DNA of 64,000 nt, from NCBI GenBank assembly GCA_016930935.1, contig JAFGFT010000019.1, forward strand, positions 5,664 to 69,663, given 5' to 3'. Made by a program: the position numbers and the translations under genes. Below are positions 267-14,614 of the stretch, piece by piece (position 1 is the stretch's first letter; every line of letters starts with the position of its first letter). Source of the stretch: Dehalococcoidia bacterium. GTDB taxonomy: Bacteria > Chloroflexota > Dehalococcoidia > GIF9 > AB-539-J10. The notes below the pieces were generated by a model. That model searched no databases, was not told where the DNA came from, and saw nothing but the letters and a program-made list of their open reading frames with translations.

Positions 267-3200
267 ATGAGACACTTTGCCCGTCTTCTCACCGCAGTAC
301 TCTGTTCACTTCTATTCCTCGCACCGGGCGCGCCGTTGACGCAGACGGCCCACGCCAGCGACGGCAGAGGAGCTGAGCTTCTTGAAAACCGACTCGTTGT
401 TCAGTTCGATGACGGCACAGATAGCCGTGAAATGGCCGCCGCGCACAAGCGCGCCGGCGTCACCGTCGTAGCCATGGTTCCCGAACTCAACACCTACGTT
501 GTAGAGCTATCCGGAGGCTCGAAATGGCTTTCTTCCGCACTCTACAAGCTGGACAGCCATGTCGCGGGGGTGGAAGACGACCCCATCGCGTGCACCACTG
601 AGGAGCCGAACGACCTCTACTACAACAACACCCAGGAGTGGGGACTCTTCAACATCGATGCCCAGGGAGCGTGGGAGGTCACCCACAGCAATCCCGACAT
701 CCGCATCGCGGTGCTCGACACCGGCATCCAGAGCACGCACCCCGACCTCGCGGACAAGATAGTCGCCGCAGCCGATTTCACCGGCAGCGGAACTCCTGAA
801 CCGGTCTCAAACACTCACGGCACACACGTTGCCGGCATCGCCGCTGCCTCAACGAACAATGCTATCGGCGTCGCATCAATCGGCTACAACGCGAGCCTGA
901 TGAACGCCAAGGTCATGAACGAAAGCGGCACGGGCTACTACTCCTGGATAGCCGCAGGCGTCATCTGGGCCACAGACAACGGCGCAGATGTCATCAACAT
1001 GAGCCTCGCCGGAACCAGCAATTCTTCGCTGCTGGCGAATGCAATCGACTACGCGTGGGAACACGGAGTAGTCGTAGTAGCCGCTGCCGGCAATGATAGC
1101 AGTACCACCCCGTACTATCCCGCAGCCGACCCCGATTGCATCTCGGTCGCAGCTTCCAACAGAACCAACGTCCTCGAGTCGTGGTCCAACCATGGCTCGT
1201 GGGTAGACGTCTCCGCGCCTTCATCCGCATACTCGACCAGAATCAACTCAAGCTACACCGCGATGCAGGGCACGTCCATGGCCTCGCCTTACGTCGCCGG
1301 TCTCGCCGCCCTGGTGCTCGACGTGGTATCCGACACGAACGGCAACGGCCGCACCAATGACGAAGCCAGGACCGCCATCGAGTCCACGAGTGTCGATTTC
1401 GGCACGGACGTGAAGTACGGCCGCATCGATGCGGCCGCGGCAGTCGCTGCGCCAACCCCACCTTCTGAAGGAGAAGTATCCGGCACAGTGCTGGAGGCAG
1501 CCACCTCGAATCCGCTCGAAGGCGTCTCCGTCACTGACGGCACGCGCTCAACCACCACAGACAGCCAGGGCTTCTACTTCCTCTCCAGCGTCCCTCCCGG
1601 CACGTACACCATCGCCGCAAGTGCGGACAACTACGTCCCGGCGTCGCAGGACATCACCGTTGTTGCCGGGGAGACCGCAACTACAGACTTCTCGCTCGAA
1701 CCCGTGCCTGCGCCCAACCAGGCGCCAGTCCTCGACGCCATCGGCAGCCTTTCAGTAGAAGAGAAGGAGTCGCTGGAATTCTCCGTCACCGCCTCGGACC
1801 CCGACGATGACGCACTGAGCTATTCGATCGACGGTCTGCCGGAGGGCGCGACCTTCGTTGACCCGGTATTCTCATGGACGCCTGCCGTCGGACAGGCGGG
1901 AAGCTACAACGTGACGTTCACCGTTTCCGACGGTGCACTGACGGACGAAGAAACCGTCACCATCAACGTTGAGCAGATACCCCCATACGGGACGGTGACA
2001 GGCACGGTCACGGACATCGTCAGCGGGGAACCCATAGCGGGTGCTCTCGTCTCCAATGGCGAGACATCGGCTATCACAGGCGTGCAGGGCACCTATACGA
2101 TGACGAGCGTCTTCGCAAGCGAATGGACGTTTACCGCCCGGGCCGACCGCCACGTAGACGCCGCAAAGGACGCCACGGTCGTCGCGGGTGACACGACCAC
2201 CGTGGATTTCACCCTCGAGCCGATTCCGAACACCCCTCCTGTCCTGGAGTACATCGGCGACAGGATTGTCGCTGAGGAAGAGATGCTCAGCTTCACTGTG
2301 TCCGGCTCTGACGCCGAGGGTGACAGCCTCTCCTATACGACGTCGGTTCTGCCTGACGGAGCGTGGTTCCAGGACCGGCGCTTCTCCTGGACTCCCTCTC
2401 TTGACCAGAGCGGCATCTACAGCATCACATTCACCGTATCCGACGGCGTTCTCTCCGACTCGGAGACAATCGCCATCGATGTTCTGGACGTGCAGAAATG
2501 CGGTTCCATCGGGGGAACAGTCAGCGACGCCTCGTCGGGTACGCCCATCGCAGGCGCGACGGTATCGGCAGCCGGCACTTCCACTATTACGTCCGCATCG
2601 GGCACGTACACGCTGGCCGATATCTCGCAAGGCGTCTGCTTCGTGGATGTGTCGGCAACCGGCTACGTTTCCTCTTCACGGGACGTGACCGTCACCGCCG
2701 ACAAGGTGTCGTCCGCCGACTTCACTCTCGACCTTCTCCCGAAAAATGCACCGGTCCTCGTCACGATTGGCGACAGGACCGTGGAAGAGACGCAGACACT
2801 GGAAATCACTCTCTCAGGTACGGACGCCGACGGCGACAGCCTGACGTATTTGGCAGGACAACTGCCCAAGGGCGCCAGTTTCGCAGGCCAGGCGTTCTCC
2901 TGGACTCCGGTCGAGGGACAGGCGGGCACCTGGGAGGTCACCTTCACGGTCACCGACGGCACACTCTCCGCGTCAGAAACCGTCACCATCACGGTCACAC
3001 CGGTCCAGCAGACCCCGGACGGCGCAATGTGGACTGAGAGCATCGATTTCTACGCCATCGGCACCCCCACACCCACCATGCTGCGCGTTATCGTGTCCGT
3101 GGTGAATCCCGACCCTCTCAAGGACGCCCTCGTGTTCGTTGACATTGCGGACTCCAGCGGAGCCGTACGTCACCTCTACACAAGGACAGACAGCCTCGGC

Positions 3201-4691
3201 CAGGCGAACTATCTCCTGCGCAACCCCGCCCCCATCACCTATACCGTCACCGTTTCCAGGGTGCTGCACGCCGACTACACATGGTACACATGGTCGGAAG
3301 CACTGGGCGTCACCGAGAAGAGTTTCCTGGTCGGCGAGCCACCGGCGTACGGCCGCGTGCAGGGACAGGTCACGTCGGCCGCCGACGGCCAACCGATAGT
3401 CAATGCAACCGTCACTGACGGAACGCGCACCTCTACTACCGACTCCATGGGAATGTACGCTCTCAACGATGTGCCCGCAGGCGACAACTGCATTGTCAGC
3501 GCCTCAGCGGACGGATACGTGACGAACTCATGTGAGGTCTCAGTCCTGGCCGATAGCACCACCACGCACAACATCACGCTGCAACCGGTGCCAAACACCG
3601 CTCCCTCTCTTAACGCCGTCGGGAGCAAGGCCGTGGACGAGGGCGAGACGCTCCAGTTCTCCGTCTCGGCAACCGACCCGGACAACGACCCTCTGTTCTT
3701 CTCGGCCACAGGGCTTCCGGATGGCGCGGCGTTCGCAGGACAGACCTTCTCATGGACACCGGCTGTCGGCGACGCCGGCATGTACGAAGTAACGTTCGAG
3801 GTCAGCGACGGAGAACTCTCCGATGCCGAAACCATCCATATCACCGTCAACGCAGTGCCGCAGTTTGGCACCGTGTGGGGGACCATCAGCGACATCAACA
3901 CGGGAGCGCCTGTTGAGGGTGCAAACGTGTGCGTTGGGAGCGTGTCAGACACGACGGGTGCGAATGGCGACTACGAGTTGCGCGGCATTCCCGCCGGAGC
4001 GTGGTCCGTCAGCACAAGCGCTGACGGCTACTACGAGGTTTCGCGCACCATCACGGTCGCCGGGAACGACCGCATCAGCGTGGACCTGCACCTGGAACCC
4101 CTGCCCAACGACCCACCGGTGCTTGAACTCATCGGCGACAAAGACGTGGTCGAAGAAGAGGCGCTGGAGTTCACTGTTTCCGCCTTCGATGCGAATGACG
4201 ACGCACTCTCCTACGATGCTGAAGGCCTGCCACAGGGAGCCTCATTCGAAGGGCAGACGTTCTCATGGACGCCCAACGCGGGCCAGGCAGGCAGTTACGA
4301 CGTGACGTTCACCGTTTCAGACGGCGAGGATTGTGACACGAAGACAATCACCATCACCGTGAACGAGGCGCAGGAAGCACCTGCTGATGGCATGTGGGTT
4401 GAGTCCATCAACTTCTACGCGCTGGGCGACCCCACGTCGATGCTGCGCATCGTCGTCTCGGTGGCAACTCCGGAACCACTGGCAGATGCCCTCGTTTTCA
4501 TCGACATCACCACTCCTTCCGGCAAGACGAGCCACCTCTACACCAGGACGGACAGCCTCGGCCAGGCCAACTACCTGCTGCGAAGCCCCGCCCGGGGCGA
4601 GTATCGGGCCACGGTGACACGAATCATGTGCGGTGACTACACGTGGGACACCACGCGAGGCACTGTTTCACAGAACTTCACTCTGCCATAG
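267..4691 (+). CDS. Secreted S8 (subtilisin/thermitase-like) serine protease with five carboxypeptidase-regulatory-like + Ig-like modules and two copies of a ~100-aa domain
   Basis: Signal peptide; catalytic triad motifs AVLDTG, HGTHVAG, GTSMASP; repeated G.V.G.V.D..SG.PI.GA.V and N.PVL..IG...V.E...L.F.VS..D.D.D.L.Y....LP.GA.F....FSWTP modules; GGAGG RBS. Confidence 0.92.
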   Translation: MRHFARLLTAVLCSLLFLAPGAPLTQTAHASDGRGAELLENRLVVQFDDGTDSREMAAAHKRAGVTVVAMVPELNTYVVELSGGSKWLSSALYKLDSHVAGVEDDPIACTTEEPNDLYYNNTQEWGLFNIDAQGAWEVTHSNPDIRIAVLDTGIQSTHPDLADKIVAAADFTGSGTPEPVSNTHGTHVAGIAAASTNNAIGVASIGYNASLMNAKVMNESGTGYYSWIAAGVIWATDNGADVINMSLAGTSNSSLLANAIDYAWEHGVVVVAAAGNDSSTTPYYPAADPDCISVAASNRTNVLESWSNHGSWVDVSAPSSAYSTRINSSYTAMQGTSMASPYVAGLAALVLDVVSDTNGNGRTNDEARTAIESTSVDFGTDVKYGRIDAAAAVAAPTPPSEGEVSGTVLEAATSNPLEGVSVTDGTRSTTTDSQGFYFLSSVPPGTYTIAASADNYVPASQDITVVAGETATTDFSLEPVPAPNQAPVLDAIGSLSVEEKESLEFSVTASDPDDDALSYSIDGLPEGATFVDPVFSWTPAVGQAGSYNVTFTVSDGALTDEETVTINVEQIPPYGTVTGTVTDIVSGEPIAGALVSNGETSAITGVQGTYTMTSVFASEWTFTARADRHVDAAKDATVVAGDTTTVDFTLEPIPNTPPVLEYIGDRIVAEEEMLSFTVSGSDAEGDSLSYTTSVLPDGAWFQDRRFSWTPSLDQSGIYSITFTVSDGVLSDSETIAIDVLDVQKCGSIGGTVSDASSGTPIAGATVSAAGTSTITSASGTYTLADISQGVCFVDVSATGYVSSSRDVTVTADKVSSADFTLDLLPKNAPVLVTIGDRTVEETQTLEITLSGTDADGDSLTYLAGQLPKGASFAGQAFSWTPVEGQAGTWEVTFTVTDGTLSASETVTITVTPVQQTPDGAMWTESIDFYAIGTPTPTMLRVIVSVVNPDPLKDALVFVDIADSSGAVRHLYTRTDSLGQANYLLRNPAPITYTVTVSRVLHADYTWYTWSEALGVTEKSFLVGEPPAYGRVQGQVTSAADGQPIVNATVTDGTRTSTTDSMGMYALNDVPAGDNCIVSASADGYVTNSCEVSVLADSTTTHNITLQPVPNTAPSLNAVGSKAVDEGETLQFSVSATDPDNDPLFFSATGLPDGAAFAGQTFSWTPAVGDAGMYEVTFEVSDGELSDAETIHITVNAVPQFGTVWGTISDINTGAPVEGANVCVGSVSDTTGANGDYELRGIPAGAWSVSTSADGYYEVSRTITVAGNDRISVDLHLEPLPNDPPVLELIGDKDVVEEEALEFTVSAFDANDDALSYDAEGLPQGASFEGQTFSWTPNAGQAGSYDVTFTVSDGEDCDTKTITITVNEAQEAPADGMWVESINFYALGDPTSMLRIVVSVATPEPLADALVFIDITTPSGKTSHLYTRTDSLGQANYLLRSPARGEYRATVTRIMCGDYTWDTTRGTVSQNFTLP
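3018..4688 (+). repeat. Two intragenic copies (approx 3018-3332 and 4386-4688) of an unassigned domain
   Basis: Both read DG(A)MW.ESI.FYA.G.PT..MLR..VSV..P.PL.DALVF.DI...HLYTRTDSLGQANYLLR.P; DNA near-identical in the core. Confidence 0.85.
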
Positions 4692-4766: not shown

Positions 4767-5960
4767 CTACGGATCGAGTGCTATGAAGACCGTCTGGTAG
4801 CTAGTACCATCCTGGCAGATGACCGCCGCGAGTTGTCCGGCCCCTGGCACGAACGTCGCACCGTTCGCCTCCGCGTCATCGATGATGCCCTGTGCCGTGG
4901 CATCAATATTGGTAACAATGCCACCCCACAGGAAGTACCAGAACGCAACCTGCTGGGGCGAACCGGCAAGAACTTGTCCGTATGGCGCTATATTCACAGT
5001 CTTGCCGGACGGATAGTCCAGTGCCATGTACGCGGGTTGGTTCAAGACCCAGTTGATTTTGTTCCAGGCGGCAATGGTATTGAATGGAGCCTCAAGTGAA
5101 GACAGCAACGTGATGTCAACACTCAGCACCACGGAGTCCTCCGCCTCGCAGCACCACGCGTCCATTGGCTGTGGCTCCAACAGTATTAGGTCGGGCACCA
5201 CGCCCTGACTTGGATCCGTCTCGCTGAACGTCGCCAGGAAGGACCCACCCGGGCCGTTCCAGTTACTGTCCAGATCCAGGTGCACCTTGTAGTCAGGCAG
5301 GTCCATGACCTTCTGAACGTCGGGTTCGCACAGGTTCCACTGGATGGCTTCGAGCTCCAACCTGACGCTACCGGTCACACCGCGGAGCGACATGTCCTGC
5401 GGAATTTCGGCGTAGACGTTCACCTCGAACGTCTCGCACTCGTGGAGCTGGTACTCATCGTCAACGACGAACCTGGTGGCACCTCCGCCGTGGGTGATGG
5501 AACCGTCAGGCCAGACTATCTCCCACCACACGTACGGAATCAGTGCGTCCGGCACGACGACGAAGTCCGTCACACTCACGTGCGCCGGAACACCGTAGTA
5601 GTGCACCAACAGGTCAGCCTTGAACAGCGGTCCGGGGAAGATGTTGTCGAACATCATGAACGCAGTGTCTTCCTCGACGTCGTATTCATCGACGTACGCC
5701 GAGGCGACGTAGAGATAGTTCAGGTCAATCATCTCCTTTTCGCTGAACTTCTCGGTTCCCTCAACCAAGTCACCGTTGCTCAGGTTCTTGTACACGTAGG
5801 TCGCGGAGGTGTCCTCAATGACGAGGTTCACCTCGCCCATCTCTACGATGCCCTGTACGACAAGGTCGTCCGTCCACGAGGCGAAAGCCGCGCCGCAGAG
5901 TCCCACGGCCAGAACCGCAGCCATGGTCATGAGACCGAGTCTACCGAGTTTGCTTCTCAT
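4767..5960 (-). CDS. SipW-class signal peptide (TasA/CalY-like) protein with C-terminal putative thioester domain (TED)
   Basis: N-terminal GAAFA/SWTDDLVVQGIVEMGEVNL; core ends AIQWN; C-terminal AWCCE...WNKINWVLN...QQVAFWYF...SYQTVF motifs. Confidence 0.75.
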   Translation of the reverse strand: MRSKLGRLGLMTMAAVLAVGLCGAAFASWTDDLVVQGIVEMGEVNLVIEDTSATYVYKNLSNGDLVEGTEKFSEKEMIDLNYLYVASAYVDEYDVEEDTAFMMFDNIFPGPLFKADLLVHYYGVPAHVSVTDFVVVPDALIPYVWWEIVWPDGSITHGGGATRFVVDDEYQLHECETFEVNVYAEIPQDMSLRGVTGSVRLELEAIQWNLCEPDVQKVMDLPDYKVHLDLDSNWNGPGGSFLATFSETDPSQGVVPDLILLEPQPMDAWCCEAEDSVVLSVDITLLSSLEAPFNTIAAWNKINWVLNQPAYMALDYPSGKTVNIAPYGQVLAGSPQQVAFWYFLWGGIVTNIDATAQGIIDDAEANGATFVPGAGQLAAVICQDGTSYQTVFIALDP

Positions 5961-5987
5961 GCCATTCCTCCTTTTGCGCTACTTCGC

Positions 5988-6716
5988 CTAGTCAATGAGC
6001 GGATACTCGTTCCACTGGACCATGTTGATGGTGGTGGTGAAGCCGCCGGTCTTGTTCATGAGCGTGTTGTCCTGCGGGACATGAATCCACCACTCGATCA
6101 TGACCCTGTCACAGTACTCGAGCTGGAGTCCTTCCAGGTCGACCATGACCCATCCTGGTGTGGTACCTGCAGCGTCTTCCCACTTGTAGGCGACCATGTA
6201 GAACTCGGGCGCCGAAGTCATGTTCCAAAGAGCCGCAAGCCACTCACTTTCGTCACCGAACTCCATTGTCGGACTCAGCTTCGCCGGCACGCTGCCGATG
6301 TAGTGCAGCACGATGTCGGCTTTGAACCAGACGCACGGGAAGAGGTTGTTGAACTTCACCTCGAACGACTGGCCTTTGCCCTGGATGCAGTTTCCCTCAT
6401 CAAGCATGCCCGGAAGTTGCCCCGTCCAATCAGCGGAGGCGACAGGCAGCAGGATGTCTGCAGACACGTCGAGTTCCTCCGGCGAGACCAAGACGTCGCC
6501 GGGTTCATACGTTTCGTCATCAAACTCGTACTGCTGGAGCACCTTGTACACCCAGGTCTCAGAGAACCCGCAGATCTCGTAGCCGAGACTACCGGTGGTC
6601 ACCTCACCCTCGATGCTGACCTGGTCGGTCCACGACGCGAAGGCCGCGCCCATGGTGCCGACTGCAAACACAAGGGCCAACATCAGCATGCCGACCTTAC
6701 TTACTCTGCTTCTCAT
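5988..6716 (-). CDS. SipW-class signal peptide (TasA/CalY-like) protein
   Basis: Start re-assigned to MRSRVSK (GGAGG RBS); GAAFA/SWTDQVSIEGEVTTGSL; NLFPCVW; C-terminal VQWNE. Confidence 0.8.
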   Translation of the reverse strand: MRSRVSKVGMLMLALVFAVGTMGAAFASWTDQVSIEGEVTTGSLGYEICGFSETWVYKVLQQYEFDDETYEPGDVLVSPEELDVSADILLPVASADWTGQLPGMLDEGNCIQGKGQSFEVKFNNLFPCVWFKADIVLHYIGSVPAKLSPTMEFGDESEWLAALWNMTSAPEFYMVAYKWEDAAGTTPGWVMVDLEGLQLEYCDRVMIEWWIHVPQDNTLMNKTGGFTTTINMVQWNEYPLID

Positions 6717-6768
6717 TTCATTTCCTCCATGTAGTGATGCCGTCTGCGGCCGCTTTTGCGACCGCCGG

Positions 6769-6864
6769 CAGGACCACCCGCACCGACCGCGCCCCACGCC
6801 GGGCACATGAACCCTCCGGGCGCGCACGGGCCTCCATTGTTGTCCACTATCCTGCCGGGCATCA
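6769..6864 (-). ncRNA. Candidate structured RNA motif A, copy 1
   Basis: UGAU-GCCCG-GCAGGA...GCCCGG...GGUCG-nnn-CGGGU-GGUCC, shared with three other leaders. Confidence 0.45.
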
Positions 6865-6903
6865 TGTCAGTCACTTCCCTTGGATTCCTTGCGTTCCGTG
6901 AAC

Positions 6904-7752
6904 CTATTCAGCCCACTGTTCGGCATCGATGGTGATAAGGAACTCACAATCAGCGTTCTGTGGCATCACCATCAGACCGTTCGGCCCCTCAATGTCCTGC
7001 TCAAAGTGCCAGTTGAGCTGAAGCCACAGGGTGTGGCACGGCTCAAGCTGGAAGGGCTTACCTCCCTCCCATCCGGAGAGGAAATACTCCAGTCCTGCTG
7101 CACCTTGCATGCCTGTGTAGGTGGGTCCATTCGTCACACCGCTACAGGTAGTTGCATCGTGGACACACCACCACCAATCGTGCAGTTCAAGCCACTGCAA
7201 GACGGAGCAGTCTGTGGCACCCACCGGTTCAAAGTCCACGTCAACGATGTGCAGCGGAATCGAGCCGTTGTTGGCAATGCAGATGACCACGCCACTGGCG
7301 TACCACGGATAGGCATTGTGTATCTCCTCACGAATGGCACCGTAGAACGGAGCAGCATCCCCGAGCAGGTGCACGTCCTTGTTGAAGCGCAAGCTATCGG
7401 TGACGTTGTAGCTGTTCGTCGAGGCGACGTTCTTGAATTCCTCGTTGGTAGCGGATCCAAACTGTGGGTCAGGACTGCCGTTGGTCCACGGATCGGTGGG
7501 CGGGTTTCCGGGATAGAGCATACCCCCCTCTTCCGGCAGATAGTTTGGCCCCCAGTCAAGGTCCACCATGTAGTTGAGGTCCTGCAAGCCGGTCGCGGTC
7601 ACGTCACAAATGCCGACCTGGAAATCAGCGGTTGTCACAACGCCATTGACCACCAGTTGGTCAGTCCAGGACGCGAACCCTGCGCCCATAACGCCAACCA
7701 CAAGGACAAGCGCCACCATCAATACACTGACCCTTCCCAATCTGTGTTTCAT
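6904..7752 (-). CDS. SipW-class signal peptide (TasA/CalY-like) protein
   Basis: GAGFA/SWTDQLVVNGVVTTADF; NAYPWY; NNGSIP; QLEPC; C-terminal AEQWAE. Confidence 0.8.
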   Translation of the reverse strand: MKHRLGRVSVLMVALVLVVGVMGAGFASWTDQLVVNGVVTTADFQVGICDVTATGLQDLNYMVDLDWGPNYLPEEGGMLYPGNPPTDPWTNGSPDPQFGSATNEEFKNVASTNSYNVTDSLRFNKDVHLLGDAAPFYGAIREEIHNAYPWYASGVVICIANNGSIPLHIVDVDFEPVGATDCSVLQWLELHDWWWCVHDATTCSGVTNGPTYTGMQGAAGLEYFLSGWEGGKPFQLEPCHTLWLQLNWHFEQDIEGPNGLMVMPQNADCEFLITIDAEQWAE

Positions 7753-7784
7753 CTTCTATCTTCCTCCAAATCTCGTACCCGTTG

Positions 7785-7880
7785 CAGGCACCGCCCGTCT
7801 CGACCGTGCAGCGGGGTGCAGGCCCGCGCCTCCACCTCTGCTGCCTCCGGGCACATTGTCTTCTGTCCTGCCGGGTATCA
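7785..7880 (-). ncRNA. Candidate structured RNA motif A, copy 2
   Basis: UGAU-ACCCG-GCAGGAC...GCCCGG...GGUCGAGA-CGGGC-GGU. Confidence 0.45.
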
Positions 7881-7894
7881 CCTCAGTTCTTCCC

Positions 7895-8638
7895 CTATGG
7901 CAGGGGCGGGGCTCCGGTCCACTCGTTCCACTGGATGGCGTTGATGTCAACGCCCCACTGGGCACTCAGGTTCTGGAGGGCGTTGTCCTGCGGGATGTTC
8001 ATGATTACCTCAAGCAGCAGGTAGTCACAGTAGTGCATCTGCCAGCCGTTGTAGAGGTTGATCCTGCCAGGCCCCCAATCTGAATCTATGGACGCGTCAG
8101 GCTCGAACACACCCGTTTCAGGGTCGTAGTCACCTATCGTGGCGGTGTCGAAGATGGCCCGCGGAGTCACGGTTGAGTAGTCCCAGCCCATGATGTCAGT
8201 CAACGCTAAGTCGCCTGTCTTGAAGGTCTCATAGGCCCAGACCTCCGCCGGGATAGAGCCGTTGTAGTGCAGCAGGACATCTGCAACAAAACTCTCATAC
8301 GGGAAGATGTTGGTTGCCACACCCACTACGTCGGCGACCTCATCAGTTCCCGCCTCACGCATGTAGAATGACGCAATCTCTATGCCGCCCGCAGGCGCGC
8401 CGGGGAACTCGTCCATCCAGCCGTGCCAGTCGACCGTCTCATTGTTATCACCGCCCGGCACCTTCCAGACATACGTTCCCGAGTACCTGACTACTTCAAG
8501 GTCCAGGGTGCCCGTATCGACCTCTCCGGTAATCTGGACCTCGTCCGTCCAGGACGCGAACCCCGCGCCCATGACGCCCACCACAAGGACAAGCGCCACC
8601 GTCAGCAGCCCAATCTTTCCCAGTCTATGTTGTTTCAT
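7895..8638 (-). CDS. SipW-class signal peptide (TasA/CalY-like) protein
   Basis: GAGFA/SWTDEVQITGEVDTGTLDL; NIFP; HYNGSIPA; C-terminal AIQWNE; GGAGGAGG RBS. Confidence 0.82.
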   Translation of the reverse strand: MKQHRLGKIGLLTVALVLVVGVMGAGFASWTDEVQITGEVDTGTLDLEVVRYSGTYVWKVPGGDNNETVDWHGWMDEFPGAPAGGIEIASFYMREAGTDEVADVVGVATNIFPYESFVADVLLHYNGSIPAEVWAYETFKTGDLALTDIMGWDYSTVTPRAIFDTATIGDYDPETGVFEPDASIDSDWGPGRINLYNGWQMHYCDYLLLEVIMNIPQDNALQNLSAQWGVDINAIQWNEWTGAPPLP

Positions 8639-8732
8639 CTCTAATCCTCCTCCAATATCTATCTCTTGCCCGTTGCAGGGACTACGGCATCTCCGCCCGA
8701 CTCACCGGGAGAAGTCACCTCGCTCCCGCACA

Positions 8733-8815
8733 CAGGACCGCCCGTCTCGACCGCGCCCCACCTCTCTCCGGCGGGCACGCCCGGGCAACGGTTCCCCTGC
8801 CCTGTGCGGGCTTCA
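8733..8815 (-). ncRNA. Candidate structured RNA motif A, copy 3
   Basis: UGAA-GCCCG-CACAGGGC...GCCCGG...GGUCGAGA-CGGGC-GGUCCUG. Confidence 0.45.
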
Positions 8816-8966
8816 TCAAGTCACTCCACCTCGTCCCCATATTCGCAGGTGTGCCTTACCGGGCTTGCGCCCGACCGCCCGGGACCGACCGGCCCCAACG
8901 AACCCCCCTGGCCCCCGGACGACTCGGCAGTTGTATTCATATGGTTCTTCAACATCCTCTGTTGCA

Positions 8967-9857
8967 CTACGAAACTTCACACCAGAGACTGGCAATGACC
9001 TCAAGTTCGAGGGAGATGTTCGCGCCTTCCGGCATCGGCGTGCCCCCGGAGACATCCACGAAGTAGACGGCGACGCCAAGCTCAAGCGCCTCTCCCGGCT
9101 CCAGTTGTACCGGCCCGCTGTTGAGCCACGTGGCGAGGAACTCCTCGAGGGCAGGCCCGGTCTTGAAGGCATAGTCATCGCCCCAGCTATCCGCCACACT
9201 GCCTTCACTCCACAGAACCGCATCCCAGTGGTCCACCAGCGCGAATGGAAGGGCACCGGAAGGGTCGAGGACGTTCAGGACGTCCATGCCCTCAACGTTG
9301 ATTGGCAGCGTGCCTCCATTGCCGAACACGAGCGTCGTGCCCGTCAGGTACCATGGATACACGTTGTTGAATTCCTCCCGCACGCGGCCATAGAAGGGCA
9401 TGAAGCTCATGTCCTTCACATCTTCAAGGTCGAACAACCACGGCTCCAGGTTGGTGCTGTGGGTGGACGCAAGATTGGGGATGGTGACAATAGCGGGTTC
9501 AACCTTCGGCAGCAGGGCCGGCAGTATCACCGCCGCGCCGGCAGGAATGAAATAGCGCGCCACGGCGCTCCGAGCCACCATCTGGACACGGTTGTCTATC
9601 GTTCCGTCAAAGGGGGAATTCACAGGGAAGGCGGCCCCACCCGGCTCCAGGTAATTGGGACCGGGGTCCCAGGAAGCGTAGTCGTAGATGCCGTACTCCA
9701 CGTTTCCTGTCGTGACGACCGCGTCCACCACAACGTCGTCAGCCCAGTATGCGAAGGCCATGCCCATCGCCGATAGCGCGACAACCGAGGTCATCACCAC
9801 TATCCCGACAAATGCAGTCCTGCGCCTCCTCACGGCCTTCCCCACTCCTTCACGCAT
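8967..9857 (-). CDS. Divergent SipW-class signal peptide protein, first gene after the riboswitch
   Basis: GMAFA/YWADDVVVDAVVTTGNV; NVYPWY; GNGGTLP; QLEPGE; start uncertain (ATG 9857 or GTG 9833). Confidence 0.75.
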   Translation of the reverse strand: MREGVGKAVRRRRTAFVGIVVMTSVVALSAMGMAFAYWADDVVVDAVVTTGNVEYGIYDYASWDPGPNYLEPGGAAFPVNSPFDGTIDNRVQMVARSAVARYFIPAGAAVILPALLPKVEPAIVTIPNLASTHSTNLEPWLFDLEDVKDMSFMPFYGRVREEFNNVYPWYLTGTTLVFGNGGTLPINVEGMDVLNVLDPSGALPFALVDHWDAVLWSEGSVADSWGDDYAFKTGPALEEFLATWLNSGPVQLEPGEALELGVAVYFVDVSGGTPMPEGANISLELEVIASLWCEVS

Positions 9858-9879
9858 CAGGCGTACCGTTACTCCCTGC

Positions 9880-9914
9880 AAAAAGACAAAACCGCCCTCT
9901 CACCGAGGCCGGTT
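9880..9914 (-). terminator. Intrinsic terminator overlapping the 3' end of the riboswitch aptamer
   Basis: AAACCG-GCCUC-GGUGA-GAGGG-CGGUUUU-GUCUUUU (one mismatch). Confidence 0.65.
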
Positions 9915-9975
9915 TCGCCACTGGCTCCGCGCACCCCCGGCGACCAGATCGCGGGGCACGCATCAACGCCTCCTC
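9905..9975 (-). promoter_or_regulatory. c-di-GMP-II-like riboswitch
   Basis: GAGG-AGGCGUUGAUG-CGUGCCCC...GGUCGCC-GGGGGUGCG-CGGAGCCAGU-GGCGAAACC-GG-CCUC: P1 GAGG/CCUC, kink-turn-like UGAUG/GGA, P3 stem, pseudoknot GGUCGCC/GGCGAAACC, by eye against the RF01786 consensus. Confidence 0.8.
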
Positions 9976-10024
9976 TAGTTGTTGACGCCTCTGTCAGTAT
10001 TCTCTCTGCTTGTCTCTCTCCCTG

Positions 10025-10459
10025 TCAGTAGACTCTGGATGCTGAACCCTCCGGCGTACAGGCAAACCCGCCCGCCGAAGTCAGGTTTCTCTCTTCCTTC
10101 GTGGACCGTGACAACAACATCCTTACCCTCGCCAGCATCTCCCGCGCATCCAGCGGCATAGGAAGATAGGCATCCGCCCCCATCTCCAGGAATGGGACCC
10201 CGGCAACCTCTTCATAGTCATCGCCGAGCACGATTTTCGGCATGTCGAACAACCGGAACATCTGCCGCGCCACCCCACAGTCACACATTGCCGGACAGTG
10301 CTGCGCGACAATCACCAGGTCGGCCTCAGACCGGCGCTGCCCAACTGCCACATTCCGGCTTCCCACCCCCACATCAACCTGATAGCCGGTATGGCGGAGA
10401 AAAAACGCGATTCGCTCCCGGCGTTCACAGTCGGGGTCCAGCAGCAGTATCCGTTGCAT
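10025..10459 (-). CDS. Stand-alone atypical response regulator receiver domain
   Basis: RILLLD..., DLVIVA, LEMGADAYLPMP...EMLARVRMLL; phospho-acceptor Asp position is Ala; no output domain. Confidence 0.7.
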   Translation of the reverse strand: MQRILLLDPDCERRERIAFFLRHTGYQVDVGVGSRNVAVGQRRSEADLVIVAQHCPAMCDCGVARQMFRLFDMPKIVLGDDYEEVAGVPFLEMGADAYLPMPLDAREMLARVRMLLSRSTKEERNLTSAGGFACTPEGSASRVY

Positions 10460-11034
10460 GACCCAATCCAACACATTGCAAGGGTGGCTCAACACACTGG
10501 TGGGTACAGTGCAACGGAAGAGGAGAATGGTGGAAGAATGGAAGCAAAAGGTCGCGGCAGGGTATAAATTGGTGCCTATCTGGTCAACGCGACAACGATG
10601 GCTCGACGGAGGGATTCTCTGTCATCGCCTTCATCACATTCTCTGCACCACCACCCTGCGGCACTATGGAATCGAGCCGGGGTGGTGGCCGCCAATGTCG
10701 ACACGATTATCGGCAGTGCGAACCGTTCAACAAGACCTCGTTCCCGAACCCATGGCTCCGGACGCAACTACCGCGGTCGGCACATGAAGATGCCGACTTT
10801 TCCCGGTCAGCCTCTCACATTGTCCTTCCTCCTCACCACACGCATTCTGCATCTGTCACGTGGCCTGTTGCACAGGGAGACGTTGGCCTGTGCTTCACGC
10901 CTGCGCGGAAGCCTGTTCACCTCTTCCGCACTCCGAACGGAGCGGCGCCTCAAGGCATTGACGGACACGTATGCCGCGCCACACAGTGCCGAGAGCGAAC
11001 CGTCCTTCGGCAGCACAGACCGTGAAACGGGACT

Positions 11035-11067
11035 GCGAGGGCGGGGCCAGTGGCCCCACCCTCACGC
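11035..11067 (-). terminator. Hairpin downstream of the second TED-bearing gene
   Basis: GAGGGCGGGGCCA-G-TGGCCCCACCCTC; resembles the 4716-4740 hairpin. Confidence 0.55.
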
Positions 11068-11088
11068 TATCGCGCCGGTCTCAAGACG

Positions 11089-12270
11089 CTACGGGTCAAT
11101 CTCCACGAAAACGGTCTGGTAGCTGATGCCATCCTGACAGATGACTGCCGCCAACTGGCCGGCTCCGGGGATGAAACCTGCAGAGTTCGCGTTGGCGTCC
11201 GCGATGAGGACCTGCGAGATGTCCGCCGCAGGGGGTGACCAGCCACCCGGCTGGTAATTCCAGTACGCCCGCTGCCGCGCGGAGTGGGTCATCACTCCCG
11301 AGAGCCCGCCCACTGTCATCTGGAGCCCGTCGAAGTTGTACGGCGGGTCACGATACGCGGGCCGGTTCAACAGGTAGTTGATGGGCTCCCATGCAGGCAT
11401 TCCTATGGTCGAGATGAGCGTCACGTCGAGTTCCACAACTGAGGATGTCTCGAACTCGAAGCACCATGCCGGCCACGGGTTGCCGAGCTCCAGCCACTCA
11501 TACCCTGCGGGTACGCTGCTGAAGTACGCGTCGAAGTACGACCGCGGAGAACCGTACGAGTCAAGCGTCGGCGAGTACGCGCCCTGCAACACAAGGTGTA
11601 CCGGTGTAGACGGCAGGTCGAGTACTTTCTGCACGACCGGCTCGCACAGGTTCCACTGGACCGCCTCCATGGCGAACGAGACACTCCCTGTCAGGCCCTG
11701 CACTGCCGGGTCCTGCGGAAGTTGTGCGTAGATGTTGACCTCGAACTCTTCGCACTCGTGGACCTGGTAGTAGCCGTCCACGATGAACAAGAGAGTGTCC
11801 ATCGCCCCTGATGACGTGGTGCCGTCAGGCCAGACAATCTCCCACCACACATACGGGGCAAGCTCCGGGGGCGCGACGTCGAAGTTCTCGAGCGTCACGT
11901 GAGCAGGGACGCCATAGTAATGAATGAGAAGGTCTGCCTTGAACAACGGTCCGGGGAACAGGTTGTCGAACAGGACGGTGGCCGTGTCGTTCAGAACGTT
12001 CTCCTCGTCAGCGATTGCTTGCGCCGAGGCGATGAGCTTGTAGTCAGGATCAATCATCTCCTCTTCAAGCACGACTATCCCGCCGGTCGAGAGAATCTTG
12101 TACACGAGCGTCTCAGACGTGTCCTCGATAACAAGGTCGACTTCACCGGTTGAGACCGTTCCATGTACGACAACTTCGTCCGTCCACGAGGCGAACGCAC
12201 CTCCGCACAGTCCCACGCCGAGGACCATGGCCATGGTCATGAGGCCCAGTCTTCTGAGTCTGCTTCTCAT
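11089..12270 (-). CDS. SipW-class signal peptide protein with C-terminal putative thioester domain; paralog of 4767-5960
   Basis: Start MRSRLRR (GGAGG RBS); GGAFA/SWTDEVVVHGTVSTGEVDL; AVQWN; AWCFE...WEPINYLLN...RQRAYW...SYQTVF. Confidence 0.77.
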   Translation of the reverse strand: MRSRLRRLGLMTMAMVLGVGLCGGAFASWTDEVVVHGTVSTGEVDLVIEDTSETLVYKILSTGGIVVLEEEMIDPDYKLIASAQAIADEENVLNDTATVLFDNLFPGPLFKADLLIHYYGVPAHVTLENFDVAPPELAPYVWWEIVWPDGTTSSGAMDTLLFIVDGYYQVHECEEFEVNIYAQLPQDPAVQGLTGSVSFAMEAVQWNLCEPVVQKVLDLPSTPVHLVLQGAYSPTLDSYGSPRSYFDAYFSSVPAGYEWLELGNPWPAWCFEFETSSVVELDVTLISTIGMPAWEPINYLLNRPAYRDPPYNFDGLQMTVGGLSGVMTHSARQRAYWNYQPGGWSPPAADISQVLIADANANSAGFIPGAGQLAAVICQDGISYQTVFVEIDP

Positions 12271-12304
12271 GCCACACCTCCATTCAGCCAATCAGTCGCG
12301 GGAC

Positions 12305-12958
12305 TCACGGAGCAGGTTCGTTCCACTGAGTGTTGGTGATGGTGCAGGTGAACGAGCCGCTCTTGCTCATGAGCTCATCAAGCTGGTCGAGGTGGAACCA
12401 GAACCAGAGCTTGACGCGGTCGCAGAACTCCCACTGGTAGTAGAAGGGCTCGCTCATGAAGTCGATCTCCTCCAAGGTGTCATAGTTGTAGGCCTCGATG
12501 GACATCGTTTCGCCGAGCAGGGGGTCGCCCTCCCACTCACAGTCGACGGTCAGGTGCGCAGGGATACCTCCGATGTAGTGCAGACCTATGTCGATGCCGT
12601 GCCAGACACAGGGGAACAGGTTCCAGTACACGACCTCGAATGTCGGAGGAACCTCTATCTCGCGTCCTTCCGAAGCATCGAACGGGTCGACATCTACGAT
12701 ATCGGCATAGGAGACGAGCAGCATCTCGGGCGGTATGGGATCGAGAGGAGCGCCCAACGTAACGACTTCATCAGTCACAAGGTCCTTGTAGACCCAGACC
12801 TCAGAGAGTTGGTAGATCCTCCAGCCAAAATCCGCGGTGGTGACCGTACCCGACACAACGACTTGATCCGTCCAGGAGGCGAAGCCCGCGCCCATGACAG
12901 CAACGGCGAACACCAGCGCCAACATGAGCATTCCAACCTTTCCCAATCTTCCTCGCAT
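12305..12958 (-). CDS. SipW-class signal peptide (TasA/CalY-like) protein; paralog of 5988-6716
   Basis: GAGFA/SWTDQVVVSGTVTTADF; NLFPCVW; LHYIGGIPA; CDRV; C-terminal TQWNE. Confidence 0.8.
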   Translation of the reverse strand: MRGRLGKVGMLMLALVFAVAVMGAGFASWTDQVVVSGTVTTADFGWRIYQLSEVWVYKDLVTDEVVTLGAPLDPIPPEMLLVSYADIVDVDPFDASEGREIEVPPTFEVVYWNLFPCVWHGIDIGLHYIGGIPAHLTVDCEWEGDPLLGETMSIEAYNYDTLEEIDFMSEPFYYQWEFCDRVKLWFWFHLDQLDELMSKSGSFTCTITNTQWNEPAP

Positions 12959-13050
12959 CTTCTTACTCCTTCACGAATAACGCAGGCACAATCCTCTTGT
13001 GCCCATCACAGGCGCCACCAGCCTGTAAGCATCAACTCGCGCCTGTGCGC

Positions 13051-13164
13051 AAGACTGCCCGTATCGACCACGCACCACCCGCTGACAGTTGCGAGACAAC
13101 CCTCACCACTCCTCTCACCAGGTTGCTACGCCCGGACATCCGTATCGCGTCCTGCGGGGCACCA
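13051..13164 (-). ncRNA. Candidate structured RNA motif A, copy 4
   Basis: UGGU-GCCCC-GCAGGAC...GUCCGG...GGUCGAUA-CGGGC-AGUC. Confidence 0.4.
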
Positions 13165-13344
13165 CATCTCTTCTCGCGCTCGTGTCTGTCTTGTATCTTG
13201 ATTCACGGCGTGTCTCTCGGGATACCCTTCCCCACGCCCGGGATCGACCGGTCCACCGGCACTGGATGCGCCCTGCCCCCCGGCGATTCGGCTGGAAGAG
13301 ACAGTGTGTTGTGTCCTGCGATTGTGATCCTCCTTCACCAGAGA

Positions 13345-13371
13345 CCAAAAAACCGACCCTGAGGTCGGTTT
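13345..13371 (-). terminator. Intrinsic terminator overlapping the 3' end of the riboswitch aptamer
   Basis: AACCGACC-UCAG-GGUCGGUU-UUUU. Confidence 0.8.
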
Positions 13372-13435
13372 CGCCATTGGCTCCGCGCGCCACACCGGCG
13401 ACCATATGAAAGGACGCGCATCAACGCCTCCCCAG
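13359..13435 (-). promoter_or_regulatory. c-di-GMP-II-like riboswitch
   Basis: CUGGGG-AGGCGUUGAU-GCGCGUC...GGUCGCC...GGCGCGC-GGAGCCAAU-GGCGAAACC-GA-CCUCAG; P1, P3 and pseudoknot all pair. Confidence 0.82.
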
Positions 13436-13546
13436 CAGACTTGCGTCTTCTCTAACTCATCTTGCTCCGCGCGCCACTCCGGCGACCACATGATAGGACG
13501 CGCACATCAACGCCTCCTCAACAGACTTACGTCATCTCTTCCATCT
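13380..13546. repeat. ~84-nt tandem direct repeat; the upstream copy is a 3'-truncated riboswitch aptamer
   Basis: 13380-13462 and 13464-13546 both begin GCTCCGCGCGCCAC.CCGGCGACCA.ATGA.AGGACGCGCA. Confidence 0.85.
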
Positions 13547-13915
13547 CACAGCAGTGTCCGCCCACTGCGCCCGCACCCGTAGGACGGAAGCACCGCTGCT
13601 ACATCGAGGAACATCCCGTCTGCCGAATGGGCGTGCAACCATTCACACTTGATTGCAGGGGGTCTGAGCACGGAGGGCCACTCACCTTCTGCGCTCATGC
13701 GGAGGCATCATCGTACCCCGGCAACAGCATAATCCAGCCGACGCACACCAGGACCTTCGCCCCTCTTCCATCGAGTGCGGGACTCGCGGTAAAGAAGTAC
13801 AGGGTTGCAGGAGGCGGCGAGTGTACTGTGTCGCGTCCAACCGTGCAGTGCCTGTTGCGAGGAAACCCGGGGGAAGAACAGGGCTCAACCGTGCCATTCG
13901 GGAGGCATCCGGTGC

Positions 13916-14614
13916 CTAGTCAGTAGCTGAAGTTGCAGAAAGCATGTAGCCAACGCCGCGACGATTGACGATGTAGCGCGGCTCGGCAGGGTCTTCTTCC
14001 AGCTTCGCACGTAGGCGATGGATGTACTTCTTGACGAATTCGGGGTCCGCGTAGCCCTCATTACCCCACACCCGGCCAAGAAGATCCTGACGGGTCACCA
14101 CCGTGCCCTCATGTTTCGCAAGCTGACACAGCACCTTGAACTCCGTGGGCGTGAGCGTGGCACGCCTGCCATCGATGCGAACTTCCTGCGTGCCGAAATC
14201 GATGCTCAGCGCGCCGTTGAAGTACTTCGATTCCTCTGACATCGAGCCCGTCCCCACGCGACGCAGCAGTGCATTCACGCGGGCAATGAACTCCATGGGA
14301 ATCGAGGACGGGCGTATCCAGTCATCCGCTCCTGTCTCAAGCGTGCGGACCTTCGCAACGACGTCGTCGAATTGACCAACAACTATGAGGGGAACATCGC
14401 TGAAGGAACGAACCTGGGTGATGGCATCACAACAACGGGCGACGTCTTCGTCACAGGCGATGAGAAACAGTGAGGGCTCCTCTCTGCGGAGCGCGGCAAT
14501 GCTCTCACGAGCGTCACTGGTTCGTTGAATGACGAGGTTGCGCCATCTCACCTGGAGAATGACACGAAGGGTCTCTGCCAGTTCCTCCGTTCCACCCAGT
14601 ATCACCGCCTTCAT
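13916..14614 (-). CDS. OmpR/KdpE-family response regulator with atypical receiver
   Basis: C-terminal winged helix LTPTEFKVL...YIHRLRAKLEEDPAEPRYIVNRRGVGY; receiver lacks the acidic pair and phospho-Asp. Confidence 0.88.
   Translation of the reverse strand: MKAVILGGTEELAETLRVILQVRWRNLVIQRTSDARESIAALRREEPSLFLIACDEDVARCCDAITQVRSFSDVPLIVVGQFDDVVAKVRTLETGADDWIRPSSIPMEFIARVNALLRRVGTGSMSEESKYFNGALSIDFGTQEVRIDGRRATLTPTEFKVLCQLAKHEGTVVTRQDLLGRVWGNEGYADPEFVKKYIHRLRAKLEEDPAEPRYIVNRRGVGYMLSATSATD

Follow-up and report, generated by a model that had tools for sequence, protein, structure and literature searches.

The window analyzed here, 64,000 nt of contig JAFGFT010000019.1 from the Dehalococcoidia bacterium assembly GCA_016930935.1, carries two modules of paralogous genes encoding small secreted proteins on its minus strand between 4.7 and 13.5 kb. 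The first module comprises two genes and is headed by a riboswitch aptamer of the cyclic di-GMP (c-di-GMP) family c-di-GMP-II-GAG (13354–13440, minus strand; RF03169, 60 bits versus a gathering score of 40). The second module comprises five genes and is headed by a c-di-GMP-II riboswitch aptamer (9898–9982, minus strand; RF01786, 59.1 bits versus a gathering score of 53.5). Four of the genes are directly preceded by one copy each of a repeated RNA element, which is called motif A and is the subject of this study. The results leave little doubt that motif A is a real and conserved RNA structure, and it is tentatively proposed below that it serves as a post-transcriptional operator of single subunit genes.

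The four genes preceded by motif A, all on the minus strand, encode paralogues of 242 (5988–6716), 282 (6904–7752), 247 (7895–8638) and 217 amino acids (12305–12958). The 242-residue protein has a SipW-type signal peptide and orthologues on two metagenomic contigs (L142 and L143), and a full-length homologue of the 247-residue protein, 38% identical, was found in the genome G366. The model TIGR04088 for SipW-cognate signal peptides scored three of the four proteins, at 17.7 (242 residues), 17.3 (247 residues) and 16.3 bits (217 residues), which is below its cut-off of 19. Weak matches to Peptidase_M73 (camelysin/TasA) were obtained for the two neighboring proteins of 397–400 residues, and Peptidase_M73 was also the nearest named ESM Atlas cluster to the 282-residue protein (0.92). 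The predicted structure of the latter was too poor to check the fold (predicted local distance difference test score, pLDDT, of 49.1), and a profile search with it against PDB sequences yielded nothing significant (best E-value 0.068). The label "TasA-like fibre subunits" is thus reasonable but not proven.

Copies of motif A and their specificity

The original prediction, which had been made from the sequence of the window alone, described four minus-strand copies of a shared motif. A covariance model (R1) was built from the four stretches named there. In the window it matched the minus strand at exactly four places (6760–6866, 7777–7882, 8724–8817 and 13041–13166), and these were also its only matches in the whole 2.38-Mb assembly (80.5–91.8 bits), the next best place scoring 20.7 bits. 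The 16-nt core pattern GGTCGNNNCGGGYRGT, with at most one mismatch, was present five times in the window versus 0.65 times expected, and none of 100 shuffles reached five; the fifth match (2133–2148) falls within a plus-strand open reading frame and is not a motif copy. The recovery by the model and the shuffles verified that the four copies are real and non-random.

The full elements are about 105–170 nt long and fill the leader or the intercistronic spacer directly 5' of one of the four paralogues. They were assigned to four types, c1 to c4. Copy 1 (c1; 6735–6866, minus strand; 89 bits, and 74.3 bits with R2, a later model of motif A) precedes the gene for the 242-residue protein and contains the helices P0/P1, an A-rich loop, the helices P2 and P3, a GGUCG bulge, a short inserted hairpin and the 3' strand of P0 (6741–6735). 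Its minimum free energy (MFE) fold has a z-score of -2.67, none of 200 shuffles was equally stable, and the helix ends 21 nt before the ATG. Copy 2 (c2; 7776–7882, minus strand; 91.7 bits; MFE z-score -2.44) lies before the gene for the 282-residue protein, and its closing helix carries a 2-nt bulge. Copy 3 (c3; 8667–8820, minus strand; covariance model match 8724–8817, 88.3 bits) lies before the gene for the 247-residue protein; 3' of its core come one copy of the 3' strand (proximal), an additional conserved hairpin and the distal copy of the 3' strand (8672–8667), an extension that is kept in the metagenomic contigs L141 and L142; its MFE fold is a three-way junction. Copy 4 (c4; 12999–13168, minus strand; covariance model match 13041–13166, 80.5 bits) is situated in the leader of the gene for the 217-residue protein, downstream of the c-di-GMP-II-GAG riboswitch. 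Its long architecture matches that of copy 3, and in its MFE fold the 5' strand is paired with the distal strand 13004–12999.

At E ≤ 0.5 the covariance model had no match before the riboswitch-proximal gene for a 304-residue protein (around 9833–9881) or before the two genes for the 397–400-residue proteins. The absence of the motif from these places, which the original prediction had noted (naming the latter two TED genes), was thus confirmed.

Fold of motif A

The helices named in the original prediction were a pairing between the 5' GCCCG and the CGGGC behind GGUCG-NNN, as the ends of the element, and a covarying stem of GGAC with GYCC (GGAC/GUCC). In an alignment of 11 copies, which includes seven orthologous copies described below, these pairs were formed in 83.9% of the cells. 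However, 363 of 500 shuffles did as well, and the first helix had no double change. The helices look paired because GCCCG and CGGGC each occur twice, and this part of the prediction was not supported. In contrast, a nested fold of the same 11 copies (alignment A5) had 82.1% paired cells and eight pairs changed on both sides, and none of 500 shuffles was as high on all five measures. When the partner strand was slid by 1–3 columns, only 25–46% of the cells were paired.

In the nested fold, the 5' strand of P0/P1 has the consensus (U)GAUGCCCG-GCAGG and is followed by a variable A-rich internal loop of 10–25 nt. P2 is a GC helix of 6 bp (YGCCCG/CGGGCG), which is paired in 98.2% of the cells and has G-C (8), G-U (1) or A-U (1) as its first pair. 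It encloses P3, a hairpin of variable length, and on the 3' side, between P3 and P2, an invariant GGUCG and three further nucleotides are bulged. G(N) connects the 3' strand of P2 with the CCUGC of P1, and then come an optional insertion of 0–65 nt and the 3' strand of P0, (A)CGGGCAUC. The types differ in two respects. In the c1 type, P2 is extended by the three nucleotides behind GGUCG, which pair with the 5' side; an A-U to G-C covariation was found there between two copies (b and c) of L142. In the other types these nucleotides are purine-rich and unpaired. The insertion is a 2–6-nt bulge in c2 and in two c1 copies, a short hairpin in copy 1 of the window, and, in c3 and c4, a module of about 65 nt at the start of which the 3' strand is present a second time (the proximal strand). 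The three-way junction that had been predicted for the motif therefore applies to copy 1, to copies 3 and 4 and to a related element, A' (see below), in which a hairpin is inserted at the 3' strand, and not to motif A in general. An SD-like (Shine-Dalgarno-like) word, GAGGUGAC, was observed in the c3 extension (8700–8735, minus strand) and in its equivalents in L141 and L142, about 75 nt upstream of the real SD; it is followed by a conserved hairpin, CUUCGCCCC...GGGGCGGAG, and looks like a relic or decoy ribosome-binding site.

Several further analyses agreed with the nested fold. RNAalifold predicted P0, P1 and P2 independently from a plain MAFFT alignment of six copies that had not been fitted to the model, and in eleven separate MFE folds of full leaders the same 5' columns were paired downstream (126 of 142 cells). 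Alternative pair types were found at column 5 (A-U/G-C), 7 (G-C/A-U), 8 (C-G/U-A), 10 (C-G/G-C/A-U), 11 (G-C/C-G) and 14 (G-C/A-U/G-U). The 3' strand of the closing helix falls beyond the ends that were originally assigned to the copies; with the original boundaries the folding z-scores were -0.15 to -1.45, and with the closing helix they were -2.4 to -4.4. The G-U pairs make the fold specific for the sense strand, and together with the compensatory changes they indicate an RNA rather than a DNA site. A promoter was also considered, and no sigma-70-like promoter was found near any copy, the only one lying at 10028–9999. A conserved fold with covariation, as it is typical for riboswitches, was present in motif A and also in A'. 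Readings of the GGUCG(A/G)NN bulge as a K-turn, a T-loop or a GNRA motif, as well as a pairing of GGUCG with the A-rich loop, were inspected by eye, and none of them fitted consistently across the copies. In spite of the revised helices, the core of the original prediction stands: motif A is a structured RNA on the sense strand that is located in cis, is evolutionarily conserved and occurs only before the four genes for the 217–282-residue paralogues.

Orthologous copies and evidence for selection

Among 5.8 billion clustered proteins the 282-residue protein has three homologues (74, 66 and 56% identity), all of them metagenomic. The respective contigs, L141, L142 and L143, align collinearly with the window (67.6–69.6% DNA identity), and R1 detected seven further copies of motif A on them, each syntenic and before the orthologous gene. 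Altogether, a search of both strands of 74,919 nt yielded exactly 11 matches at E ≤ 0.5, each of them located directly 5' of a paralogous subunit gene. Motif A proper is thus known from at least four organisms among the matches listed by this protein-seeded metagenome scan. Orthologues exist for c1, c2 and c3 each, which shows that the duplications predate the split of these organisms; c4 is known only from the window.

Four-fold degenerate sites of the flanking genes are identical between orthologues in a fraction of only 0.44–0.63, and yet the paralogous copies in the window have a core identity of 0.59–0.66 and 14 invariant columns are common to all 11 copies. Neutral decay after the duplication is insufficient to explain this. 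A second observation concerns the c2-type copies of L141 (4144–4248) and L143 (231–335), which are 95% identical, while the downstream proteins are 60% and the four-fold sites 62% identical; this points to strong constraint or to a recent exchange of the leader. The substitutions between these two copies alter amino acids in the frame discussed below, and they are situated in the variable loop or turn a G-C into a G-U pair.

Element A' and the wider leader family

The alignment of c3 spacers revealed a further conserved element of about 110 nt, A', which is better conserved than motif A. Its first copy (8830–8941, minus strand; 116.8 bits with the A' model R3) is situated directly 5' of copy 3, and its second copy (13189–13305, minus strand; 92.8 bits) directly 5' of copy 4. 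R3 found only these two places in the genome. By R3 or by alignment, A' was also found in L141 (3114–3225), L142 (1–112) and the contigs L158, L159, L160, L162, L164 and L165. In the same family 7 of 118 other genomes, belonging to five further genera, had a match at E ≤ 0.05, with 24–28 bits in G022, G034, G578 and G884 and lower scores in G020, G875 and G834, the last of which is doubtful. A' is absent from Rfam.

RNAalifold predicted for A' a closing stem UGCC/GGCA, a GC helix of 9–10 bp, a variable hairpin, a 3' GGUCGGU bulge, which reads GGUCGRU across the homologues, and a GCAA-capped hairpin, together a three-way junction. In ten aligned A' sequences 86.5% of the cells were paired, 14 pairs had double changes and none of 500 shuffles was as high. 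A' corresponds to the core of motif A without P1 and the A-rich loop. Read by eye, both share the order AUGCC(C)G, GC helix, variable hairpin, GGUCG+NNN bulge, C(C)GGGCG and GGCA, while R3 matched no copy of motif A and R2 matched no A'. From these shared blocks we infer that motif A may be a lineage-specific, elaborated and repeated form of a wider A' leader unit.

The genes downstream of A' also encode secreted proteins, with a SipW-type signal peptide in G884, G875 and G020 (TIGR04088 at 19.3 bits, at the cut-off, in G020) and of the Sec type in G022 and G578. At most remote A' loci a CACCU...AGGUG hairpin follows, which would occlude a strong SD; it was present in the MFE folds of 6 of 11 tails and has an A-U to G-C double change in L141. 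The GGCA strand of A' has two alternative partners, the UGCC at the 5' end of A' itself and the one within the following AUGCC. These pairings of the 3' tail look like an expression platform, as far as predicted folds can tell. In the remote genomes, A' is followed by an AUG within AUGCCCGAUGAG, which belongs to a AUGCCCGAUGAG...GGUCGAUGUGGGC unit at the position that motif A holds in the window, and a GGUCGAU(G/C)UG(G/C)GC word occurs 136–190 nt further downstream in G022, G034 and G578. The SD GAGGUGG precedes the AUG by 7–9 nt in copy 3 and in the remote homologues. Around 8836–8870 (minus strand) and in the A' tails of L141, L142 and L158–L165, the word AAGGCACRCCU can pair with the AGGUG of this strong SD. 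Long leaders of L158 (around 1690–1770 and 1880–1930), L163 and L164 contain the palindromic repeats GUCAUUGCGAGG...GAAGCAAU and GUAGUGCGAGG...UCGCACUAC, which look like dispersed repeats of the REP (repetitive extragenic palindromic) kind that inflate spurious open reading frames.

Position relative to the start codon

In each of the 11 copies the closing helix of motif A ends 19–41 nt short of the start codon, and the unpaired tail contains a GGAGG-type SD. Likewise in all 11 copies, an AUG or GUG is present in the 5' strand of the closing helix, at columns 5–7 or in frame at columns 2–4. The frame that begins at this buried start codon is open across the element in all seven c1/c2-type copies, versus two of seven for each other frame. 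In copy 1 it extends from the conserved AUG in the closing helix to a UGA that overlaps the ATG of the gene (ATGA; 6713–6865, minus strand), and such an overlap with the main start (AUGA/GUGA) was found in 4 of 4 c1-like copies. The frame of copy 2 (7756–7881, minus strand) belongs to the c2 type, in which the frames end 6–16 nt before the main start (3 of 3).

It might be supposed that the element is mainly an upstream open reading frame, from which reinitiated translation relays ribosomes to the next subunit gene, and that the fold is secondary. The conserved start codon, the open frames and the stop-start overlaps would fit, as would the canonical SD before the AUG of copy 3 and of the remote homologues and the length differences between c1-like copies, which are multiples of three (39, 3 and 0). 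However, the peptides encoded by the leader frames are not conserved and comprise 7 to 123 codons in remote homologues. The conserved nucleotides fall in different frames depending on the copy type, e.g., c1 and c2 copies differ in the frame in which GGUCG would be read, and the frames of c3 and of copy 4 end early. In copy 2, a compensatory change of G-C to A-U at column 7 keeps the helix and removes the AUG. The lack of peptide conservation, the differing frames of GGUCG and the loss of the AUG from an intact helix indicate that the conserved object is the RNA, and a primarily translated leader is regarded as quite improbable.

Comparison with known RNA families and distribution

The window was scanned with Rfam 15 (4227 models). 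With gathering scores only the two c-di-GMP-II aptamers were found, and at E ≤ 10 over 5500–14500 the sole addition was a weak partial match to c-di-GMP-II-GAG (13461–13514, minus strand; 18.8 bits, E-value 9.7) just upstream of the full GAG aptamer, which may be a degenerate tandem aptamer. A 151-nt stretch with copy 2 alone gave three meaningless matches of 10–15 bits at E ≤ 10, and the remote and orthologous loci contained only a riboswitch, in L141, and a tRNA. The scan, which the original prediction had called for, thus agreed with its failure to match the motif to a family. The c-di-GMP-II models RF01786 and RF03169 matched none of the four copies and no A', even at E ≤ 10. The guanidine-III (ykkC-III) riboswitch was not among the E ≤ 10 matches on the 151-nt stretch, so that the local resemblance of motif A to this riboswitch, a pseudoknot of 41 nt, was not borne out by the Rfam model. 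Self-cleaving ribozymes (hammerhead, twister, pistol, hatchet, hairpin and HDV-like) had no family match at E ≤ 10. In the accessible part of the literature on TasA/SipW/camelysin fibres and on c-di-GMP-II-GAG riboswitches, no description of such a motif was found.

The distribution of motif A is narrow. R1 and R2 found it in none of 15 other genomes of the genus, in none of 60 relatives (two weak matches of 22.9–24.8 bits had alignments without the core) and in none of 150 genomes sampled from the class. In these scans 28–150 candidates were scored per genome, so that weak copies could be missed. TasA-like gene clusters of G004, G007, G020 and G366 have no motif A, and hence the element is not a general feature of such clusters. 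A pattern scan of genome contigs (38-bit pattern) returned at least 118 stretches, mostly from GC-rich Actinomycetota and Proteobacteria. They were dismissed as chance occurrences, because the best of 80 loci scored by R1 reached 27.1 bits versus 80–92 bits for true copies. A word pattern for A' matched only this genome among 400 genomes of the class, a sample that held 12 genomes of the family. Since the metagenome scan was protein-seeded and its result refers to the matches listed, more carriers of motif A may exist.

Contigs from metatranscriptome libraries of three studies lie within 4.7–8.9 kb of the window's coordinates. Contigs that span motif borders (7660–7875, 6556–6825, 8744–8997 and 6850–6970) are compatible with the elements being part of RNA. 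In X3 and X6 few or no contigs lie on 9155–11233, and 6825 is the common end point of two contigs from one study; no inference was drawn from either observation.

Proposed function of motif A

The reading favored here is that motif A is a per-cistron post-transcriptional operator, which is recognized by a trans-acting factor and sets the amount of the respective subunit; judged from sequence comparison, its probability is estimated to be roughly 0.45. Motif A would act in cis at a post-transcriptional level, following the transcriptional switches of the c-di-GMP-II type, with one element per cistron. Once folded, it would place a rigid helix at a fixed short distance upstream of the free SD, and the closing helix would hide the conserved AUG/GUG, the frame of which would cross the element to the start of the subunit gene. 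The module of the invariant GGUCG and the GC helix would be offered to the trans-acting factor, most likely a protein. Its binding, or the unfolding of the element, could then set ribosome entry or coupling and hence the lifetime of the mRNA for each subunit cistron. We infer the factor, the direction of its control and any role of the buried start codon from the architecture of the element.

A number of points weigh against this proposal. No candidate for the binding factor was found, and CsrA (PF02599), which was considered for this role, can be discarded, because it was not found in the 92%-complete genome. No predicted fold visibly ties up the main SD, and motif A itself thus has no clear on/off platform. 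The c3-type frames stop 43–79 nt before the gene and the frame of copy 4 has only 16 codons, and thus the start-codon idea does not generalize; moreover, the open frames in seven of seven c1/c2 copies are statistically weak, because a GC content of 70% makes open frames cheap and the copies are related by descent, and the buried start codon is treated here as a lead. The alignment A5 was fitted to the model structure and therefore favors the nested fold. Four organisms carry motif A proper, and the two near-identical copies in L141 and L143 are among them, so that the effective sample for covariation is small. The kinship of motif A and A' was read by eye, neither model scoring the other element. 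Finally, the RNA-library data are assembled contigs, which do not prove transcription and show neither RNA ends nor levels.

The alternatives that come next are a riboswitch and a processing or stability signal. A' and/or motif A could be an aptamer for a small molecule, e.g., a second messenger tied to biofilm or fibre production, and the ligand would stabilize the closing helix and thereby alter how the leader frame and the subunit gene are translated. Aptamers usually have invariant junction nucleotides and covarying stems, and this is what was found here, including invariant nucleotides at junctions and bulges and one hairpin that is free in length. The A' tail adds the hairpin of anti-SD and SD, with its compensatory change in L141, and the alternative partners of GGCA would yield a plausible switch. 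In addition, riboswitches already govern this operon. On the other hand, the genes encode structural secreted proteins and not enzymes or transporters, a context that suggests no ligand; motif A itself lacks an evident expression platform and has no mutually exclusive pairings apart from the alternative proximal and distal 3' strands of the c3 and c4 types. Up to four copies and two A' per locus, one per cistron, would be unusual for a riboswitch, and no riboswitch family of Rfam 15 matches. An orphan riboswitch is rather unlikely. The idea can be taken further, to A' and motif A as repeats of one new riboswitch-like sensor class that is specific to this uncultivated bacterial family. Each UGCC/GGCA closing stem would compete with the AUGCC start of the next unit, and folding that depends on a ligand or factor would be passed from unit to unit, via the buried start and the short frame, to the start codon of the subunit gene. 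With a unit before every cistron, a single signal could adjust the proportions of the paralogous subunits on top of c-di-GMP-II control. Taken as one claim, this is likewise rather unlikely.

Alternatively, motif A could be a constitutive signal without any regulatory factor, i.e., a site for an endoribonuclease and/or a 5' stabilizer, which yields separately stable subunit mRNAs from the polycistronic transcript. One element is present per spacer and nearly fills it, starting about 8–50 nt after the upstream stop codon, and the closing helix is long and stable. Copy 4 follows the riboswitch and a terminator in a long leader, where trimming would leave a hairpin at the mature 5' end. As a weak hint, one RNA-library contig starts no more than 2–3 nt from the 5' strand of the copy 2 closing helix (7875–7877). 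However, a plain hairpin leaves unexplained why the unpaired GGUCG and the junction sequence are kept across paralogues and genera, and the contigs 8744–8997, 6850–6970 and 6556–6825 cross the borders of the elements. A purely constitutive signal is about as unlikely as the orphan riboswitch. The relay of ribosomes by a translated leader, as discussed above, ranks behind these two readings.

Last come functionless leftovers of the tandem duplication (or of concerted evolution of the 5' regions) and a small self-cleaving ribozyme between the cistrons. The similar signal peptides of the tandem paralogues (44–66% identity over about 50 residues at the N-terminus) and the L142 copies b and c, which are closer to each other than to their orthologues, could be taken for neutral remnants, the explanation that the original prediction had named as its own possible undoing; this is largely refuted and extremely unlikely, because the duplications predate the split of the four organisms, the four-fold sites are near saturation, double changes keep the helices, the fold beats the shuffles, columns are invariant in all copies and A' is conserved across genera. 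Equally far-fetched is the ribozyme. The element would be suitable in size, has conserved nucleotides outside its helices and lies between cistrons, and its 5' UGAUG and the GUC of the bulge loosely resemble hammerhead core words. However, none of the ribozyme families in Rfam 15 had a match at E ≤ 10, either on the 151-nt stretch or over 9 kb, in our reading the order of the conserved blocks does not fit the hammerhead core, and RNA-library contigs span the elements.

The putative operator can be compared with several known systems. The c-di-GMP-II riboswitches (RF01786/RF03169, clan CL00127) are likewise cis-acting structured leader RNAs, belong to the same operon and share the 5' word UGAUGC and a GGUCG word with motif A. 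However, GGUCG is part of a hairpin loop that forms a pseudoknot in the riboswitch, and in motif A it is a 3' bulge beside the inserted hairpin; in addition, unlike this operon, the remote A' loci have no c-di-GMP riboswitch nearby. Intercistronic hairpins for processing or stability are known from the fimbrial operons pap and daa and from the RNase III sites of phage T7. They resemble the present arrangement in having one structured element per spacer, in the case of the fimbriae in an operon for secreted filament subunits, and uncoupled subunit levels are a plausible outcome common to both. They have no kinship to motif A in sequence or structure, and motif A has unpaired nucleotides that stay invariant among paralogues and between genera.

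Flagellin mRNA is subject to post-transcriptional feedback by CsrA and FliW, in which the 5'-untranslated region is bound by protein at GGA-containing sites near the SD. The gene product is again a secreted filament subunit, and in motif A a CAGGA is conserved and an SD follows immediately 3' of the helix. In contrast to the flagellin leader, the CAGGA of motif A is base-paired and not presented in a loop, and CsrA is missing from the gene set, as mentioned above. REP elements and BIMEs (bacterial interspersed mosaic elements) are also GC-rich hairpins between the genes of operons. They are dispersed in tens to hundreds of copies, whereas motif A has four copies at a single locus of the 2.38-Mb assembly and is syntenic in other organisms, and therefore they were rejected. 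Further devices for comparison are the 5' stabilizers of the STAB-SD type, leader peptides and translational coupling. Motif A shares with them a start codon and an open frame in a structured leader and a stop codon overlapping the next start, and the SD-like GAGGUGA words within the c3 extension recall STAB-SD. It differs from leader-peptide devices in that it has no conserved peptide and no pair of terminator and antiterminator.

Structured leader or intercistronic RNAs that regulate in cis are well known as a kind. What is new is the family itself, its tandem arrangement with one element per cistron beneath c-di-GMP-II riboswitches, and the start codon buried in the closing helix. A' together with its putative relative motif A defines a new structured-RNA family, a candidate for an orphan riboswitch-like or protein-binding leader. 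Its support from covariation extends over six or more genera of a little-studied lineage, tentatively assigned to Chloroflexota by the Atlas search, and the models R2 and R3 can be used directly for mining metagenomes. If the fold is regulatory, it would represent a second, per-gene post-transcriptional layer beneath the c-di-GMP riboswitch control of an operon for extracellular fibres, and it would offer a handle on the control of subunit proportions among TasA-like paralogues in bacteria. The significance is limited by the narrow taxonomic range.

Neighboring genes

A SipW-type signal peptidase was recognized by TIGR02228 (72.1 bits, above the cut-off) at G000:C30:4571–4870 on the minus strand, about 1 kb before the start of the window. 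Between the two modules lies a gene for a response regulator of 156 amino acids that consists of a receiver domain only (10025–10495, minus strand), pieces of which are recognizable in L141 (1456–1927). The fibre cluster is adjoined by a plus-strand gene (267–4691) for a secreted subtilase of 1474 amino acids with CarboxypepD_reg, He_PIG, PKD and PEGA repeats, which resemble those of the anammox S-layer glycoprotein.

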